Of a DNA stretch of 32,554 nt, positions 2,680-9,536 are shown piece by piece. The DNA comes from Candidatus Iainarchaeum sp. (GTDB lineage Archaea; Iainarchaeota; Iainarchaeia; Iainarchaeales; Iainarchaeaceae). The position numbers were made by a program, and so were the translations under genes. The stretch is from positions 1 to 32,554 of the forward strand of contig JAWANB010000003.1 of NCBI GenBank assembly GCA_038895675.1, written 5' to 3'. Under the pieces are notes generated by a model that was not told the origin of the DNA, searched no databases, and saw only the letters and a program-made list of their open reading frames with translations. The first letter of the stretch is position 1. Each line of letters opens with the position of its first letter.

Positions 2680-5001
2680 ATGCAGACAAAAAGTTTGTTG
2701 ACAATCACGATTTTACTATTCATATCTTTTAATGCCTTTGCAGTATTAAAGACAGGTTCAACGCCAATATATGCAGTAACAACAGAAGGACAAGGTTTAG
2801 TAGCAACATTACACCTTGAAATAGAAAAAGGACAAGGAAAAATTTGGACCAATGTAAGCCCTTTAGTTGGAACTTCAACGCAAAACGCTGAAATAACTGC
2901 TGTAAACGTAGCAAAAAAATATTTCAAAGATGTTGATAACTATGATTACAAGTTTTCTATAAAGTCTTCAGCTTCTGTAGTTGATGGCCCAAGTGCAGGA
3001 GCTGCAATGGCATTGCTTGTAATTTCAATGCTAACTGACAAAGAATTGCCAAAAAATGTTAGCATAAGTGGAACAATAACTCAAAATGGCCAAATAGGAC
3101 CAGTAGGAGGAATCTACGAAAAGGCAAAAGAAGCGAGCAAAACAGGAATAAAGCTATTCATGATACCAAAAGGCGAAGCAATCCAAACAAGAAAAGACAA
3201 TGGAATAGGCAGTGTAAACCTTATAGAATACGCTCCTAAAGAATGGGGAATGAAAGTAGTTGAAGTAAAAAACATAGATGAAGCATTAAAGCTCGCTTAT
3301 TCTGATATAGAAAAAATAGATGTCAACACAAATGTTGACAAAGCAATTCCTGAGTTCATACCACAAAAAATTCAATTGCAAAAAGAGACTTCAGATTTTA
3401 AACTGCTTGTCACTAACTACATAAAAAAAGCTAAAGAACAAGTCAAAGAAGCAAGGTTGGCAATTTCTTCTTCTTTGATTGATGATCCAGAATTGGTTTT
3501 TGCGTTGCAACAAACAGTAAATGAATCAGAATCAATGATTCAAAAAGCAGAAATATTGAATGAACAAAATTACTTGTATTCTGCAGCAAACTTTTCTTTT
3601 TTAGCCAAAAGTAATGCAATAATGGTAAAAGAAATAGCAATTAACCCTGGGATTTTAGAAGAAAGCTCAAAAAACTTTGACTTGAAATTGGCACAACTAA
3701 ACAAAGAAATAACACAATATGAAAAACAATTGAATGAAAAAGTTCCTAAAAAGAATTTAGAAATGTTCATATCAGCACAACAAAGATTCATATATGCAAA
3801 AAATTCTTTGGAAGAACTAATGGAAGGAAAAAAAATAACTATAGTAATATCTAACAACAACCAAGACTATTTTTCAACAAACTTGGCAAAACTTAGAAAA
3901 TACGCTAATGCTGTAGCTTGGTTGGAAGTCTCAAAAGACTTTTTGAGCATTGTACAAGAAGATGAAGTACTTACAAGACAAAGCACACTTAAAGAAAGAG
4001 TTGAAGAAAAAATAGGCTATACAAAAAAAGAAATGGAAAGCATTGAAGATGAAGGAGTAATTGAAGAAGCTCAAAGAAGAATTGACTCTGCTTTAAAGGC
4101 TGTAGAAATGAATTGGTTTGAACCTGCCTTGCTTGACGCCGCAACAGCAAAAGCTTTTATTGATGCTGAAAAAGACTCTTTTGACAAAAACATTGAAGAC
4201 CTAAACAAAACTTTAATTGAAAGTATTGAAGAAACAGAAAAAAAAGTTAGTAATAATAAAAGCGTGTGGGCAATACTTTACTTGGCGCACGCAAAATATT
4301 TTTTGGCTTCAGCAAATTATTATTTGGAACTTGGTTCAGAACCTTTAGCCATAGAAAACCTCAAAAGAGGAATAAGCATAGCCTATTTAGCCTCAGAAAT
4401 ATACGATAACGTTTTAGAAGTAAACAAAGTTTATGAAAAAATACCTGCTGAAAAGATACAGGAAAAAACTGAAATGGAAATAAAAGTAGAAAACAAAGGC
4501 TTTTCTATAATGCCAATAGCCTTAGGCTTTGGCTTTGCAATCTTAATATTTATAGCTTTATTAGTCATAGTCTCAAGATCTTCACCAAATAGAACAAACC
4601 TTTCATCAGAACTTGCTACAGCAAAAAGAAAATTGTCAGAAATAGAATCAAACTTTATTTCAGGAAAATTGAGTCATGAAAACTATGAAAAACTGAAAAG
4701 AGAATATCAAGAAAAAATACAAAAACTTGAAAAAGAAATAGCAGAAAAAACAAAACACTTAATAGCCTATGACAATTACTCTTTGACACTGAGCATATTG
4801 AACGAAAGACTCAAAAATCTAAAAAGATTGTTCAAAGAAGGAATGTTACCAAGACAAGAATTTGAAAACCAATCAAAGCAAATAATAGCAGAAATAAATT
4901 CTTTAGAAAAAAAGCTTTATGAAGAAACACAAACATTAGAAAAAGAGCAAACGAAAGAAAAAAAACAAAAAAAACTCAAAGAAAAAACAAAGAAGAATTA
5001 A
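2680..5001 (+). CDS. Membrane-anchored Lon-like (peptidase S16) serine protease without AAA+ domain
   Basis: Signal peptide; VDGPSAG (catalytic Ser), SGTI, IGPVGGIYEK (catalytic Lys); long helical region; TM helix near residues 608-632; coiled-coil tail. Confidence 0.88.
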   Translation: MQTKSLLTITILLFISFNAFAVLKTGSTPIYAVTTEGQGLVATLHLEIEKGQGKIWTNVSPLVGTSTQNAEITAVNVAKKYFKDVDNYDYKFSIKSSASVVDGPSAGAAMALLVISMLTDKELPKNVSISGTITQNGQIGPVGGIYEKAKEASKTGIKLFMIPKGEAIQTRKDNGIGSVNLIEYAPKEWGMKVVEVKNIDEALKLAYSDIEKIDVNTNVDKAIPEFIPQKIQLQKETSDFKLLVTNYIKKAKEQVKEARLAISSSLIDDPELVFALQQTVNESESMIQKAEILNEQNYLYSAANFSFLAKSNAIMVKEIAINPGILEESSKNFDLKLAQLNKEITQYEKQLNEKVPKKNLEMFISAQQRFIYAKNSLEELMEGKKITIVISNNNQDYFSTNLAKLRKYANAVAWLEVSKDFLSIVQEDEVLTRQSTLKERVEEKIGYTKKEMESIEDEGVIEEAQRRIDSALKAVEMNWFEPALLDAATAKAFIDAEKDSFDKNIEDLNKTLIESIEETEKKVSNNKSVWAILYLAHAKYFLASANYYLELGSEPLAIENLKRGISIAYLASEIYDNVLEVNKVYEKIPAEKIQEKTEMEIKVENKGFSIMPIALGFGFAILIFIALLVIVSRSSPNRTNLSSELATAKRKLSEIESNFISGKLSHENYEKLKREYQEKIQKLEKEIAEKTKHLIAYDNYSLTLSILNERLKNLKRLFKEGMLPRQEFENQSKQIIAEINSLEKKLYEETQTLEKEQTKEKKQKKLKEKTKKN

Positions 5002-5227: not shown

Positions 5228-5515
5228 TCACTTAGCTGATACTAACTCTGCTTTTTTCATTCTTTTTGGAATTATGAAATAGCCTTTAGTACCACAAACC
5301 AAACACTCTTTGACGAAAGTAGGTTTTTTGTTTTGCTTTTTTACTATTGCAGTATGCTTTGCTTTTCCACCATGACCTTTTTTATGCTTCCTAACGTTGC
5401 TTCTCTGACCTATAGCAAGCGCCCTTGTTTTACCCGCCTTAAATGCTTTGAGTTTATGCTCTGTGTGCTTATTGCATTTAATGCAGTATGATTGAACTTC
5501 TTTCGGTATTTCCAT
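5228..5515 (-). CDS. rpl44e: 50S ribosomal protein L44e (eL42)
   Basis: MEIPKEVQSYCIKCNKHTEH...ECLVCG zinc ribbon, highly basic. True start is ATG 5515 after a GGAGTGG SD-like site; the longer ORF in the track is a spurious extension. Confidence 0.95.
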   Translation of the reverse strand: MEIPKEVQSYCIKCNKHTEHKLKAFKAGKTRALAIGQRSNVRKHKKGHGGKAKHTAIVKKQNKKPTFVKECLVCGTKGYFIIPKRMKKAELVSAK

Positions 5516-5633
5516 AACATCCACTCCATAAAGCAAGTTAAAGGAAAGTTTAAAAATTGTGTGAAAAAAACCAAAACAACTTATTTTTTGTTTATTAGAA
5601 ATTATTAAATATTGTGGTGTCTTTTTCCTATGC

Positions 5634-6506
5634 ATGGGCCAAGGCTTTTTGAGGGTTTTTTCAATAATGGCTGACTCCATAGTAAGCATAGTATTAAAAC
5701 CCACAATATTGTTGCCAACGCTCCTGACAAGTTTCGTTGAATTATTAGTAATACTTTTTAGCAGTGAATACATAGAAAGGCTTGTAGAAGACTTTGTTTT
5801 GTTTGATAATTTTGCAAACGTTTCATTAAGCGAACTCCCGGTTTATTTGCTGACAAACTACTTTTTAGAATTGACAGCTCTGATGTTAACACTCGTTATT
5901 ACTTTCGCATTATATCTTTATGTCTTATTTGTTTATGCTATTTTTTTAGAAAGAGAAGCAATAAAAAAGTCAAAAGGCTTTGTAGGAAGCATAGCGAACA
6001 ATCCTTTGTTGGCATCCAAAAAAAACACTATTATTAATGACATGATATTTGCGTTAAGGGCTTTCCCGCAAATTCTTAATCTGACATTTTTTTATTTTGT
6101 CTTATACTTGCTTTTCATAGTTTTTTTAGGGGTCGTACTATTCCTCAGCTTGCTTTTACCTTCCTTGACTATTGTTTTTTTGATTATGACCTCTTTAGGA
6201 ATAATAGGTTTTGCATACTTTTCAATAGTCTTCTTAAAAACTCCAATAATAATGGCGACCACAGGGGAAAAACTAAGGCTTGCTCTTTCAACTTCCTGGG
6301 CTTGGTGTTCTAAAAATTTCTTACAAACAATATTTTTTGTTTTCGTTTTGCTTTTCACGAGTTACACGCTAAATTACTTGTTTGACTCACTCACTGCCTT
6401 AATTGAAACTGAAGAATTAGCAGAATTTATTGGTTTAATTCTAAATTCTTTTACATTTTCATTTTTACTCTTGAGTTTCACTAAGTTTTTTCATTCTGGC
6501 TCTTAA
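5634..6506 (+). CDS. Hypothetical polytopic membrane protein
   Basis: 290-aa ORF with about 6 hydrophobic segments and an ALSTSWAW-type amphipathic motif. Confidence 0.75.
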   Translation: MGQGFLRVFSIMADSIVSIVLKPTILLPTLLTSFVELLVILFSSEYIERLVEDFVLFDNFANVSLSELPVYLLTNYFLELTALMLTLVITFALYLYVLFVYAIFLEREAIKKSKGFVGSIANNPLLASKKNTIINDMIFALRAFPQILNLTFFYFVLYLLFIVFLGVVLFLSLLLPSLTIVFLIMTSLGIIGFAYFSIVFLKTPIIMATTGEKLRLALSTSWAWCSKNFLQTIFFVFVLLFTSYTLNYLFDSLTALIETEELAEFIGLILNSFTFSFLLLSFTKFFHSGS

Positions 6507-6539: not shown

Positions 6540-9536
6540 GTGATTACTTTGACAAAACTTCTAAAAATATTTCTAAAAAACTTCAAGTCTTTTAAAAGAG
6601 CAGAAATACCTTTTGCTGATGGCTTTACAGCAATAGCTGGAGCTAACGCGTCTGGAAAAAGCAATATATTAGATGCAATATTGTTTGCTTTGGGAACAAC
6701 AAGTCTAAAATCTTTGAGAGCATCAAAACTCACTGAACTCGTCAATCATGACGCAACAGAAGGGTACGCAAAAGTAGAGTTATGGATCAAAACAAAGGAA
6801 GATAAAATAATAAAAATAACAAGGTTGATAGACAAAAATGGCAAATCTATTTACAAGATTGATGATAAGAAAAAAACATTAAACGAAATAGAATCGTTAC
6901 TTTTATCTATTGGAATAAGTGCTGAAGGCCATAACATTGTTGTACAAGGAGATATAACAAGCATAATTGAAATGAACTCAAAAGAGAGATTAGGAATAAT
7001 AAAAGAAGCTGCTGGACTACAAGAATTTGAGGAAAAAAAAGAAGAAGCACTAAAAAAATTAGCCCAAGTTGATGGGAGAATAAAAGATGTAATGCTTATT
7101 CTTAACGAAAGAGAAAACTATTTGAAAAAAATAGAAGAAGAGAAAACAAACGCATTAAAGTATAATGCATTGCAAGAAGAACTTAGAGCCTCTAAAGCAA
7201 CAATACTTTACGAAGAAATAAAATCAGTCACAAGCTATGTTGAAACAAAAAAGCAAGAAATACAAAAAATAGAAATGGACATAAAAGAAAAAAAAGAATT
7301 TTTGAATAAACTCCTTGAAGAAGAACAAAAAATTGAACAAAGAATTGAAGAAATAACAGACAAGCTTATAGAGTCAGGAGAACTTGTTTATTCAACTTTT
7401 GGGAAAGAAGCAGAACAAAAAAGGTCTAAAATAGCAATATTAGAAGAAAGAATCTCAAATACTAATCTTTTCATTGAAACAAAAGAAAATAGAAAAAAAC
7501 AAATATTTTCTGAAATAGAGTTATTAAAAACAGAAAAAGAAAATAAATCAAAAGAAATAGAAATTCTAAAAAATGAAATAGAATCTATGAACTTGAAATA
7601 TAAAGAAATAGAAAGTAAAATAGACGAAATTTCCCCAAAAACCAAAGATTCAAAAGATAGAAAACAACAATTAGAAAAAGAACTTTCGTTGATAGAATCA
7701 GAGTTAGAAAGCTTACGAAACCAAATAGAAGACATTAGAATTACTAAATCAAATTTAGAAATAGACTTTAATGCAAAAAAAAATTTTTTAGTTGAAATTA
7801 CTGAAAGACTTGAAAAATTAAAGCCAAAAATAGAAACAAAAATTCAGATAGAAAATAAACTAAAAGAACTGAATAAAATAGAAACCGCAAAAACAATTCA
7901 CAAAATTGATACAATTATCAATGAAAAAACTTCTCTACTAAACTCATTAAAAGGAAAAAGAGAAGCCGTTATAGGTGCTATAGAGAAAATATCAAAAGCA
8001 GGTTCTTATTGCCCAACTTGTGAAAGAGCCATAGATAAAGACTCTAAAGAAAAGGCTATTTCTATGAGAAAGCAAGAAGAAAAAAAAATGTTTGAAGAAA
8101 TACAAAAAATAGAAGGAGAATTAGCAAAACTTAAAGAGGAAAAACAAAAAATTTTAGAAATAGAAAAAACTATTAATGAATTAAGCATAGAAGCAGCAAA
8201 ACTAAATTCAGTTGAAGAAGAATTCAAAAACTTAGAAGTAAAGAGAAAGGAAGCTGAGAAATCTTTAGATGAAAGAAAAATAAAAGATATTTCAGCAAAA
8301 GAAAATGAATTATACACTAAAATTCTTTACCTTGAAGAACAAAAAGAACAATTACTTCAAGAGTTAATTTATACTGAACACTCTGAGTTTTTAGTTAAAA
8401 TAAATGAATTAGTTTCATCACTAAATACTTTAGGAAAAGAAAAATCTCAAAAAGAAAATTCTCTTGCAAAGATTAGTATTGAAATGCAGGCAATAAACAA
8501 GAAAATAAAAGAATTGCAAGAAGAATCCAAAATAATTTCAAGTGAAATAGAGTCTAACCAAGATTCCTTGAACGAACTTTTTTCTGAAAAAGAAAAAAAC
8601 ATTAGAGAACTAAAAAAAATTGAAAACGAGATAGAGAAGTCAAAAAAAAGCAACAAACTTTTGGAAGAAGAAAAAGAAAGGCTTTCCAAAAAAAGTTCAA
8701 AAATATCAGAAAAAATTGATAATTTCTCATCAAAAATAGAGCATAAAGAAAAAGAAGTTAACGAGATAATGATAGAAATATCAAAGAATGAAGTAAGGTT
8801 AAATGATTTAGAAGAAGAGTTTCAACCCTTTAAAGGAACTCAAATTTTGATGGTGACCAACCTTAATTCTCTCAGAAAAAGGATAGTGGAAATAGAAGAA
8901 GAAATAAGTAAAATAGGCCCTGTAAACTTGCGTTCCGTAGAAAACTTCGAAGCTTTAAAAAAAGAGGTAGATGAAATAAGACAGAGAGCAACAACGCTTG
9001 AACAAGAAAGAAAATCAGTCTTAGAAATGATATCTCAAATAGAAGAAAGGAAATTGAACGTATTCAATGATTGTTTTTCAAAAGTTAGTAAAAAATTTTC
9101 AGAACTTTATTATAACTTCTTCAATGGAGAAGGACTTTTAGAGTTGACAAACCCAGAAAATCCATTAGAAGGAGGATTACTTATTCAAGCAAAGTACAAA
9201 GAAGACACTATGAAAAGCATAGATGCGATGAGTGGTGGAGAAAAAAGTTTGACTGCTTTGGCTTTCATTTTTTCAATTCAATCTTTCATGCCTGCGCCTT
9301 TCTATATTTTAGATGAAGTTGATGCTGCTTTAGACAAAGCCAATTCTTTAAAAGTAGGTTCAATGATCAAAGAACAAAGTAGACAAAGCCAATTTATTGT
9401 AATAAGCCATAATGATTCTGTAATAAACAAGGCAGACCAAATAATAGGGGTAGCATTAAACAAGAAAAACAGTTCTGTGATAGGTTTAAAGTTGAAAAGC
9501 GAATCACAGGATAAGCAGGAAACAGCAACTTCTTAA
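6540..9536 (+). CDS. smc: Chromosome segregation protein Smc-like ATPase with Rad50-type zinc hook in place of the hinge
   Basis: NFKSF, Walker A GANASGKSNILDAILFALG, SLRA R-loop, Q-loop VVQGDI, IGPVNLRS neck, signature MSGGEKS, Walker B/D-loop PFYILDEVDAALD, H-loop ISHN; central CPTC. Start may be TTG 6549. Confidence 0.9.
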   Translation: MITLTKLLKIFLKNFKSFKRAEIPFADGFTAIAGANASGKSNILDAILFALGTTSLKSLRASKLTELVNHDATEGYAKVELWIKTKEDKIIKITRLIDKNGKSIYKIDDKKKTLNEIESLLLSIGISAEGHNIVVQGDITSIIEMNSKERLGIIKEAAGLQEFEEKKEEALKKLAQVDGRIKDVMLILNERENYLKKIEEEKTNALKYNALQEELRASKATILYEEIKSVTSYVETKKQEIQKIEMDIKEKKEFLNKLLEEEQKIEQRIEEITDKLIESGELVYSTFGKEAEQKRSKIAILEERISNTNLFIETKENRKKQIFSEIELLKTEKENKSKEIEILKNEIESMNLKYKEIESKIDEISPKTKDSKDRKQQLEKELSLIESELESLRNQIEDIRITKSNLEIDFNAKKNFLVEITERLEKLKPKIETKIQIENKLKELNKIETAKTIHKIDTIINEKTSLLNSLKGKREAVIGAIEKISKAGSYCPTCERAIDKDSKEKAISMRKQEEKKMFEEIQKIEGELAKLKEEKQKILEIEKTINELSIEAAKLNSVEEEFKNLEVKRKEAEKSLDERKIKDISAKENELYTKILYLEEQKEQLLQELIYTEHSEFLVKINELVSSLNTLGKEKSQKENSLAKISIEMQAINKKIKELQEESKIISSEIESNQDSLNELFSEKEKNIRELKKIENEIEKSKKSNKLLEEEKERLSKKSSKISEKIDNFSSKIEHKEKEVNEIMIEISKNEVRLNDLEEEFQPFKGTQILMVTNLNSLRKRIVEIEEEISKIGPVNLRSVENFEALKKEVDEIRQRATTLEQERKSVLEMISQIEERKLNVFNDCFSKVSKKFSELYYNFFNGEGLLELTNPENPLEGGLLIQAKYKEDTMKSIDAMSGGEKSLTALAFIFSIQSFMPAPFYILDEVDAALDKANSLKVGSMIKEQSRQSQFIVISHNDSVINKADQIIGVALNKKNSSVIGLKLKSESQDKQETATS

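Follow-up and report, generated by a model that had tools for sequence, protein, structure and literature searches.

Can the Smc subunit of an archaeal chromosome-organising complex do without its hinge, and what would then hold its two protomers together? The question is raised by a gene in a stretch of 32,554 nucleotides from Candidatus Iainarchaeum sp. (assembly GCA_038895675.1, contig JAWANB010000003.1, positions 1 to 32,554), here called the window. The forward-strand smc gene at 6540..9536 encodes a protein with Smc heads, and a Rad50-like CPxC motif stands in it where a hinge would be expected. The role of the SMC hinge has long been debated; it has been seen as a DNA-binding site, as a DNA entry gate and as a partner of the heads in loop extrusion. 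To our knowledge, the question has so far been addressed with engineered proteins. A sequence-only reading of the window, made without database searches, had proposed that the gene encodes a natural hinge-to-hook replacement. The follow-up described here confirms the observation and supports that reading, and none of the four findings named beforehand as refuting it turned up: no hinge was found, the heads are those of Smc and the apex is conserved and Rad50-like. It is probable (roughly 0.75), judging from sequence comparison and predicted structures, that this protein is the Smc-ScpAB ATPase of its lineage and is dimerised through a Rad50-type hook.

The gene starts with GTG and runs as a single uninterrupted frame of 998 codons plus stop; the public protein collection holds an identical copy of 998 amino acids (aa) (P0002). 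All parts lie on the forward strand. The N-terminal half of the ATPase head (aa 1-160, 6540..7019) matches Smc heads in the PDB and carries Walker A at aa 34-41 (nt 6639-6662), SLRA at 58-61 with R60, and the Q-loop at 134-138 with Q136. It is followed by the ascending coiled-coil arm (aa 161-486, 7020..7997; AlphaFold2 helices 161-367, 370-445 and 449-486) and by an apex loop, the presumed zinc hook (aa 487-499, 7998..8036), which is non-helical in both models that were made. The descending arm (aa 500-860, 8037..9119; helices 500-554, 556-575, 579-610 and 618-760) includes the joint region near aa 760-775 and leads into the C-terminal half of the head (aa 861-998, 9120..9533), with the signature SGGEK at 898-902 (nt 9231-9245), the Walker B/D-loop at 923-932 (nt 9306-9335) and H957. 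Every Smc motif quoted in the sequence-only reading is present in the translation, and the length of 998 aa and the midpoint CPTC at residues 491-494 (nt 8010-8021) were given correctly there. The protein has only three cysteines, at 491, 494 and 845.

The window protein has the head, the joint and the full-length arms of Smc. In Pfam, SMC_N covers residues 7-977 (E 1e-43). Among the NCBIfam models, SMC_prok_A (TIGR02169) scored 553.5 bits and SMC_prok_B (TIGR02168) 436.4, while the ASRP model (NF045487) reached 140.6 bits over partial stretches and five Rad50 models at most 127.5; the respective cut-offs are 729.4 bits for TIGR02169, 300 bits for the 593-position NF045487 and 700-1087 bits for the Rad50 models. 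The TIGR02169 match comes in three stretches, the last of which maps aa 511-985 to model positions 688-1165. A search of PDB sequences returned the Pyrococcus yayanosii head with coiled coil and joint (5xei, 7.6e-96) as the best match, followed by 5xns (3.9e-80), 4i99 (1e-71), the B. subtilis structure 3zgx (1e-54) and then eukaryotic SMC2 and SMC1A, whereas the best Rad50 reached 8.5e-13. The 5xei chain aligns to aa 741-988, that is, the Smc joint is matched, and the C-terminal half of the head matches 3kta_B and 1xew_Y at about 1e-40. The N-terminal head is 47% identical to that of L055, a hinge-type Smc. Head motif columns are invariant in the family alignments A1 (94 rows) and A2 (48 rows), the rows of which were chosen for having the CPxC motif.

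Structure prediction gave a similar picture. The full-length AlphaFold2 model, built with 94 family members, has a mean pLDDT of 80.1 and a pTM of 0.43; it shows a split head and helix at 161-486 and 500-860, with the 13-residue non-helical apex 487-499 in between. On each strand, some 120 residues away from the apex, the model has a break of low confidence (366-371 and 613-616); the two may represent an elbow-like discontinuity. With Foldseek, SMC proteins were the top matches of the full model (6yvu_B, 2.7e-39), and the target-normalised template modelling (TM) score to archaeal Smc heads was 0.69-0.87. Arm length was found to be nearly constant in 158 hook-type sequences that have both landmarks used, a set in which some genome loci may also be present as database proteins. 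In 143 of them, 333-335 residues separate the AGxxEF landmark from the first cysteine, and in 146 the second cysteine and the G-[A/P]-V-N landmark are 299-300 residues apart. This near-invariance would fit functionally tuned Smc arms; Smc arm length is described as functionally tuned in the part of the work of Burmann et al. (2017; PMC5344682) that was available.

No hinge was detected at any level examined. The Pfam model SMC_hinge (PF06470) has no match at E<=1 in the window Smc or anywhere in its own genome (839 kb, 91.7% complete), and it matches none of 120 listed homologues; in the control, the hinge-type L055, it scores 120.2 bits at residues 523-634. No globular middle domain is seen in the AlphaFold2 model of the window Smc. 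An uninterrupted coiled coil without a hinge had been read from the translation, and Pfam, AlphaFold2 and the genome scan agree with this. The distribution of the hinge was followed in 201 genomes of the phylum, of which 182 belong to the same order (G000 included) and 19 to sister families of the same class (f31-f35). The window Smc as query matches 188 of the 201, and the hinge model 19: 17 of the 19 sister-family genomes and 2 of the 182 from the same order, these two matches being in G151 and on a 1,633-bp contig of G193. The Smc of G151 does retain a Pfam hinge. The hinge-bearing Smc proteins of the sister orders are 1137-1182 aa long in 12 of 14 intact open reading frames (ORFs), the other two (f35) measuring 1009 and 1060 aa, and their central region takes up about 234 residues, as against 101 in the hook type. 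The argument from length put forward earlier (at 998 aa, the protein is short for an Smc) also holds.

What occupies the place of the hinge is a single CPxC near the midpoint, present in 114 of 121 proteins, or in 112 of 119 when the query and its identical copy are left aside; these proteins are 35-51% identical to the query. A1 and A2, in which rows had been selected for the motif, show no variation at C491, P492 and C494. When the Smc genes of relatives were extracted, CxxC was present in 55 of 55 (CPxC in 54, CLVC in one) from 18 family-level groups; these genes are 29 best matches of the query and 26 full-length picks representing families, and are thus a biased, non-random sample. Five further ORFs bring the family-level groups with confirmed hook types to 20. 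The survey of orthologs called for earlier thus found the CxxC conserved. The hook-type apex follows the pattern L-K-K-x-x-x-x-C-P-x-C-[D/E]-x-x-L. When all PDB sequences were searched with an apex profile (alignment A3, 43 sequences, 126 positions), the hooks of P. furiosus Rad50 came out on top (1L8D, 3.1e-15; 6ZFF, 2.4e-14), then human RAD50 (5GOX, 3.6e-5; 9Q9H, 0.0019), and after these generic coiled coils and RING fingers at E >=0.011. This result is the strongest evidence for a hook, and it agrees with the earlier remark that CPTC reads like an archaeal Rad50 hook. When the profile was aligned by hhalign with the genome's own Rad50, hook fell on hook (probability 92%, E 6.7e-7); with heads of Smc and an apex of this kind, the word chimera in the sequence-only reading was well chosen.

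The Pfam hook model Rad50_zn_hook (PF04423) matches 24 of 48 family members at E<=0.01. In five closed or near-closed genomes of relatives, it matches exactly two ORFs each, the Smc and a Rad50 of 688-790 aa; the five Smc proteins score 27.1, 26.4 and 25.9 bits, above the cut-off, and 22.0 and 21.0, below it. Modelled alone with AlphaFold2, the apex has a pLDDT of 94.1 and a non-helical tip, and Foldseek placed chains A and B of 1L8D on top for this model (TM 0.70 to 6ZFF). A complex prediction of two copies of aa 436-550 with zinc gave a score of 0.25 (mark 0.42) and counts neither way on binding. By its likeness to known hooks, the apex is a conserved Rad50-hook-like sequence and more than a chance CxxC. 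Zinc binding and hook-mediated dimerisation of the window Smc are what we infer from the analogy with Rad50.

Is the protein a condensin-type Smc at all? It could instead be a hook-bearing SMC-like paralogue, either a Rad50 variant or a protein of the ClsN/Sph kind, with a role in repair or compartment formation, in a lineage that has lost its true Smc. According to the available text of Yoshinaga et al. (2022; PMC9389158), a zinc-hook motif occurs in a very large majority of the ASRPs analysed, and the ASRP model gives the partial match mentioned above. That match of 140.6 bits nevertheless stays far under the cut-off of 300, and Rad50 models do not exceed 127.5 bits, as compared to 553.5 bits for Smc, whose model is aligned up to its last part; 5xei provides a match to the Smc joint, and the protein is nested within Smc on the head tree. 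In addition, a separate Rad50 exists, and ScpA and ScpB would otherwise be without a partner. We regard such a paralogue as very unlikely. The heads had been expected to group neither with Rad50 nor with the hook-bearing ASRP/ClsN family, and the NCBIfam scores, the PDB scores and the head tree are in line with this.

Two quick IQ-TREE runs were made on the head and joint columns, the apex columns being excluded, with support by the Shimodaira-Hasegawa-like approximate likelihood ratio test (SH-aLRT) only. In the first tree (57 rows, 483 columns), the hinge types of the sister orders lie on one side and the hook types within a group of 37 supported at 99. The second tree (62 rows, 481 columns) added Smc of Woese-, Nano-, Micr- and Aenigmatarchaeota, Halobacteria, Methanosarcinales and bacteria, and also the genome's own Rad50, the branch of which has a length of 7.6. 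Here, a hook clade of 25 (support 99) lies within an order-level clade of 30 (97), which in turn lies within a clade supported at 98 together with hinge-bearing Smc of Iainarchaeota and Micrarchaeota. On these trees, the window Smc is nested inside archaeal Smc, next to hinge-bearing Smc from sister orders within its class. The head phylogeny that had been proposed as a check thus put it inside archaeal Smc at 97-99 SH-aLRT; for ClsN and the ASRPs, the NCBIfam score was the measure. A side observation concerns Aenigmatarchaeota and other archaea: L104, L109, L115, L117 and L152 are Smc proteins of 807-834 aa with a full hinge (122.7 bits in L109) and much shorter arms than Smc of about 1150 aa, and they form one clade (96 SH-aLRT).

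The rest of the genome provides the expected partners. Only two ORFs of the window organism's genome exceed the SMC_N cut-off, the window Smc and a 681-aa Rad50 on contig C2 with a CPVC hook of its own; likewise, each of the five closed or near-closed relatives has no ORF above it other than its hook-type Smc and a single short Rad50. ScpA (C1:67528-68145, 54.3 bits) and ScpB (C1:32462-32890, 120.5 bits) are encoded on another contig, in agreement with the earlier remark that neither is adjacent to smc. ScpA was found in 186 of the 201 sampled genomes and in 58 of the 58 high-quality ones. The sequence-only reading had also asked whether the genome has a separate rad50 and any hinge-bearing smc: the former is present here and in the five relatives, and for the latter there is no match at E<=1. 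The window protein is most probably the lineage's own Smc and not a paralogue. Contig C2 is a mild tetranucleotide outlier, the proteins of which are rich in S, F, V and L, unlike the window proteins, which are rich in K, E and I at equal G+C; the separate Rad50 was therefore confirmed in the five relatives. More widely, C2, C8, C14, C16, C27, C37 and C40 are outliers on the first tetranucleotide axis and may be mis-binned from another population.

The Mre11/SbcD nuclease partner is usually linked to Rad50/SbcC. Mre11 had been noted as not adjacent to the window smc, and indeed no Metallophos gene occurs in the window. Nor is one found beside the genome's Rad50; three unlinked Metallophos ORFs lie on C7, C10 and C18, and a HerA-like ATPase is encoded 3.3 kb upstream of that Rad50.

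A more serious alternative concerns the apex. The CPxC of this lineage's Smc might not be an intermolecular zinc hook; it might just shape the turn, respond to redox state as a cysteine pair or touch some other partner. In that case, arm-arm rod contacts, heads and kleisin would hold the dimer, or a single hairpin would be at work. Several observations weigh against the hook, or against the placement of the protein, and some of them speak directly for this alternative. The central CxxC is absent from seven of the 119 other listed homologues, of which six are 924-957 aa long and the seventh (P0048, 1509 aa) has an intein; it is also absent from the Smc ORFs of the family-level groups f4, f15, f21, f24 and f27. 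The six, scanned without P0048, match SMC_N only. In all, the forms with neither hook nor hinge, of about 901-957 aa and with a plain coiled-coil apex, include P0038, P0044, P0046, P0052, P0062, P0095, L071-L073, L086, L087, L092, L093 and L200. They lie inside the hook clade on both trees, where the starred branches force at least three changes, and the genomes of the hookless groups keep ScpA (9 of 9 in f4). They look like products of repeated secondary hook loss. Since they are nested and retain ScpA, a metal-bridged apex cannot be strictly required in the clade, and any claim that the hook is indispensable is weakened.

Other points belong to the same side of the balance. The window apex itself stays under the Pfam hook cut-off (PF04423 at window 7977-8096, 18.4 bits, E 0.0018, gathering cut-off 24.3), and a scan of the whole window Smc with hmmscan gave no Rad50_zn_hook match at E<=1. 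Foldseek E values for the apex model are weak (best 3.3e-3, none <=0.001), which is expected of a helical hairpin. The window Smc also misses the equivalog cut-off of TIGR02169 (553.5 vs 729.4 bits); the score is low because the match is in pieces and the hinge part of the model is skipped, as is to be expected if the hinge columns are missing. As to the trees, the searches were short, ten rows have an odd composition and the root lies on one very long Rad50 branch. Finally, four relatives (G005, G142, G007 and G074) yielded no Smc with the window query when all candidates were scored; G005 and G142 are of the same genus as the window organism, ScpA is present in G005, G007 and G074, and one of the four is a same-genus genome that is 95% complete. 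These four may reflect gaps in the assembly, the gene being a repetitive coiled coil, or a true loss.

Against the reading of the apex as something other than a hook stand the invariance of C, P and C across sequences that are 33-51% identical overall (in motif-selected rows) and the likeness to solved Rad50 hooks, which covers about 100 residues and so goes beyond CxxC. Furthermore, each chain has only two central cysteines, and a Zn(Cys)4 site would for this reason need two chains. Smc arms can indeed be dimerised in vivo by an engineered Rad50 hook, according to the available part of PMC5344682. Weighed against the hookless relatives, this makes the alternative unlikely, though considerably less so than a paralogue, and dimerisation through a Rad50-type hook is preferred.

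Could the combination of Smc heads and a hook be an artefact, such as a misassembly of smc with a fragment of rad50 or a mis-called frame? The window does come from a metagenome-assembled genome in 43 contigs (about 32% G+C). Yet the gene is one open frame of 998 codons, and the same architecture is found in more than 100 non-redundant metagenome proteins from many sources and in G001 and G014, two genomes that are each a single contig. In run X4, from another sample, a contig spans 7896-8104, including the hook codons, with zero differences, and a possible source run carries the stretch in full on a single contig of 30,450 bp. Where runs X2-X4 leave the stretch uncovered by contigs, this carries no weight. 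With the independent proteins and the X4 contig, the check for an assembly chimera that had been suggested speaks for a genuine gene, and the chance of an artefact is practically negligible. An apparent joint between 8093 and 8665 was rejected as spurious: its shorter side is 20 letters long and lies in low-complexity coiled-coil DNA. The public runs that contain the stretch are labelled hot springs metagenome.

The following scheme would unite these observations. The window Smc would have descended vertically from a hinge-bearing archaeal Smc, and in one order-level clade of DPANN archaea of the Iainarchaeota type ("Diapherotrites" type), the hinge of about 130-160 residues would have been replaced by a short hook of the Rad50 type. 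Two protomers with two cysteines each would bind one tetrahedral zinc ion, giving a constitutive apex dimer as in Rad50, and the bridging of the heads by ScpA would close the ring. ATP-driven engagement of the heads would then power the entrapment of DNA or the extrusion of loops in the manner of hinge-bearing Smc, but without a DNA-binding surface on a hinge. A bolder version can be formulated: the order-level clade runs its only SMC-kleisin machine hingeless, having taken over its own Rad50's apex to serve as dimeriser, and several sublineages later dropped the hook but kept the heads, tuned arms and ScpA. This version is possible but in our judgement doubtful, the odds being rather against it in its entirety.

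How does the window Smc compare with known systems? With the prokaryotic Smc of Smc-ScpAB (Pyrococcus Smc, TIGR02169), it shares the sequence and fold of the head, the joint, antiparallel arms of about 330 and 300 residues, single-copy occurrence, the presence of ScpA and ScpB in the genome, and the position in the tree; it differs in having a 13-residue CPxC apex instead of a hinge and in being about 140 aa shorter. With the Rad50/SbcC hook (PF04423; 1L8D, 6ZFF, 5GOX), it shares a CPxC placed where an antiparallel coiled coil turns back, and similar flanks. Unlike in Rad50/SbcC, the hook sits on Smc heads, the arms of about 330 residues are much longer than those of the genome's own 681-aa Rad50, and no Mre11 gene is linked. 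The ASRPs (ClsN, Sph1/2) likewise belong to the archaeal SMC superfamily and have a zinc-hook motif instead of a hinge, but on the evidence of the accessible text (Yoshinaga et al. 2022; PMC9389158) they form a separate, shorter family of about 600 aa, as compared to the 998 aa of the window Smc.

Another counterpart is man-made. In the available part of Burmann et al. (2017; PMC5344682), B. subtilis Smc in which the hinge was exchanged for the zinc hook of P. furiosus Rad50, Smc(Zh), is reported to support normal growth on rich medium; the engineered swap mentioned in the sequence-only reading is this construct. Arm association in Smc(Zh) was near normal, and in its authors' view it does not matter there which fold the dimerisation domain has; arm length stayed the dominant constraint. 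The window family shares with Smc(Zh) the heads and arms of Smc and an apex hook of the Rad50 type, and its arm length is likewise nearly invariant. However, the window family is natural, archaeal and conserved across an order-level clade, comprises derivatives with short arms or without a hook, and is known here from sequences. A further paper carries the title 'Rad50 zinc hook functions as a constitutive dimerization module interchangeable with SMC hinge' (PMC6969161).

Loss of the hinge within the Smc family is described also for the 'hinge-less' SMC of marine Actinobacteria, in the part of Sussfeld et al. (2025; PMC12153180) that was available. These proteins are bacterial, and a CXXC hook motif is absent from them per the authors, whereas the window family has a conserved hook; the hookless Iainarchaeota derivatives are the closer analogue. 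In a survey of archaeal SMC proteins, DPANN are among the holders of canonical archaeal SMC (aSMC), and the word 'hook' is absent from its available text (Yoshinaga and Inagaki 2021; PMC8665677); the DPANN set of canonical aSMC in that survey may contain hook-bearing sequences without comment. Full-text searches of the main texts in a limited collection of papers found no description of a natural hook-bearing Smc. Within the literature searched, a hinge-to-hook Smc is otherwise known as a laboratory construct only. The deposited homologues, with source names such as Candidatus Iainarchaeum, ainarchaeum and Diapherotrites archaeon among the close ones, are mostly called 'AAA family ATPase' and in a few cases 'chromosome segregation protein'. 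Because of such labels and of scores below the cut-off, Smc may be undercounted in DPANN genomes.

Evolution appears to have made a swap like that of Smc(Zh) and to have kept it in the sole Smc across an archaeal order. The family would offer biochemistry and structural work a natural and sequence-diverse set of hook-bearing Smc proteins, including derivatives with short arms or without a hook, and it is evidence that at least one lineage can do without the functions specific to the hinge. If the hook-bearing and hookless proteins still organise chromosomes, then neither the fold of the hinge nor its contacts with DNA, nor a stable link at the apex, would be intrinsic to the action of Smc-ScpAB. 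If this holds true, models of loop extrusion could be confronted with a graded natural series that runs from the hinge through a degenerate hinge, the hook and a hook on short arms to the lack of any apex module.

Further variants were observed in the order. Short Smc proteins of the hook type, 773-831 aa long and with CPxC at the midpoint, are L088 (G022), L089 (G037), L090 (G036) and L091 (G105). Each arm of L091 is about 90-104 residues shorter. In both trees, L089 and L090 adjoin a hook type of full length, and the genomes they come from belong to a genus-level group (g17) shared with genomes that have forms of about 1000 aa; they are a natural 'mini-Smc'. Divergent Smc proteins on long basal branches are L080 and L085 (f5, 1084 aa), L083 and L084 (f22, 938 and 1013 aa) and L068 (G151, f25). 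Those of f5 and f22 match neither the hinge nor the hook model of Pfam; they have 118-212 central residues with hydrophobic, strand-like stretches, and these central regions may be degenerate remnants of a hinge, between hinge and hook.

The neighbours of smc are, by Pfam, a Lon_C-domain protein, ribosomal protein L44e and an unassigned membrane protein, with uL1 downstream; past uL1, the ORF translations read as uL10, P1, Spt5 and uL11. Among 36 loci of relatives, uL1 was beside smc in none and the upstream membrane protein in six, and the neighbourhood offers no operon logic. The L44e ORF (5228-5773, reverse strand, 181 aa) overlaps with its upstream part the start of the gene for a multi-pass membrane protein of 290 aa (5634-6506, forward strand); its real start is probably internal, because the L44e domain covers only aa 102-178 of the 181. 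The ORF at 2680-5001 (forward strand) encodes a 773-aa protein of unusual architecture: its N-terminal segment is signal-like, aa 65-167 make up a Lon protease C-terminal (S16) domain, one membrane segment is predicted, and the tail is a long, charged coiled coil.

Many members of the Smc family also carry inteins. Those of 1456-1576 aa have an intein with a LAGLIDADG homing endonuclease in the head, and the intein-bearing proteins are P0008, P0022, P0035-P0037, P0048, P0050, L029, L036, L044, L199 and L092. Forms of about 1200 aa with an intein are P0015 and P0023. In L092, the intein is inserted inside Walker A, after G-K.

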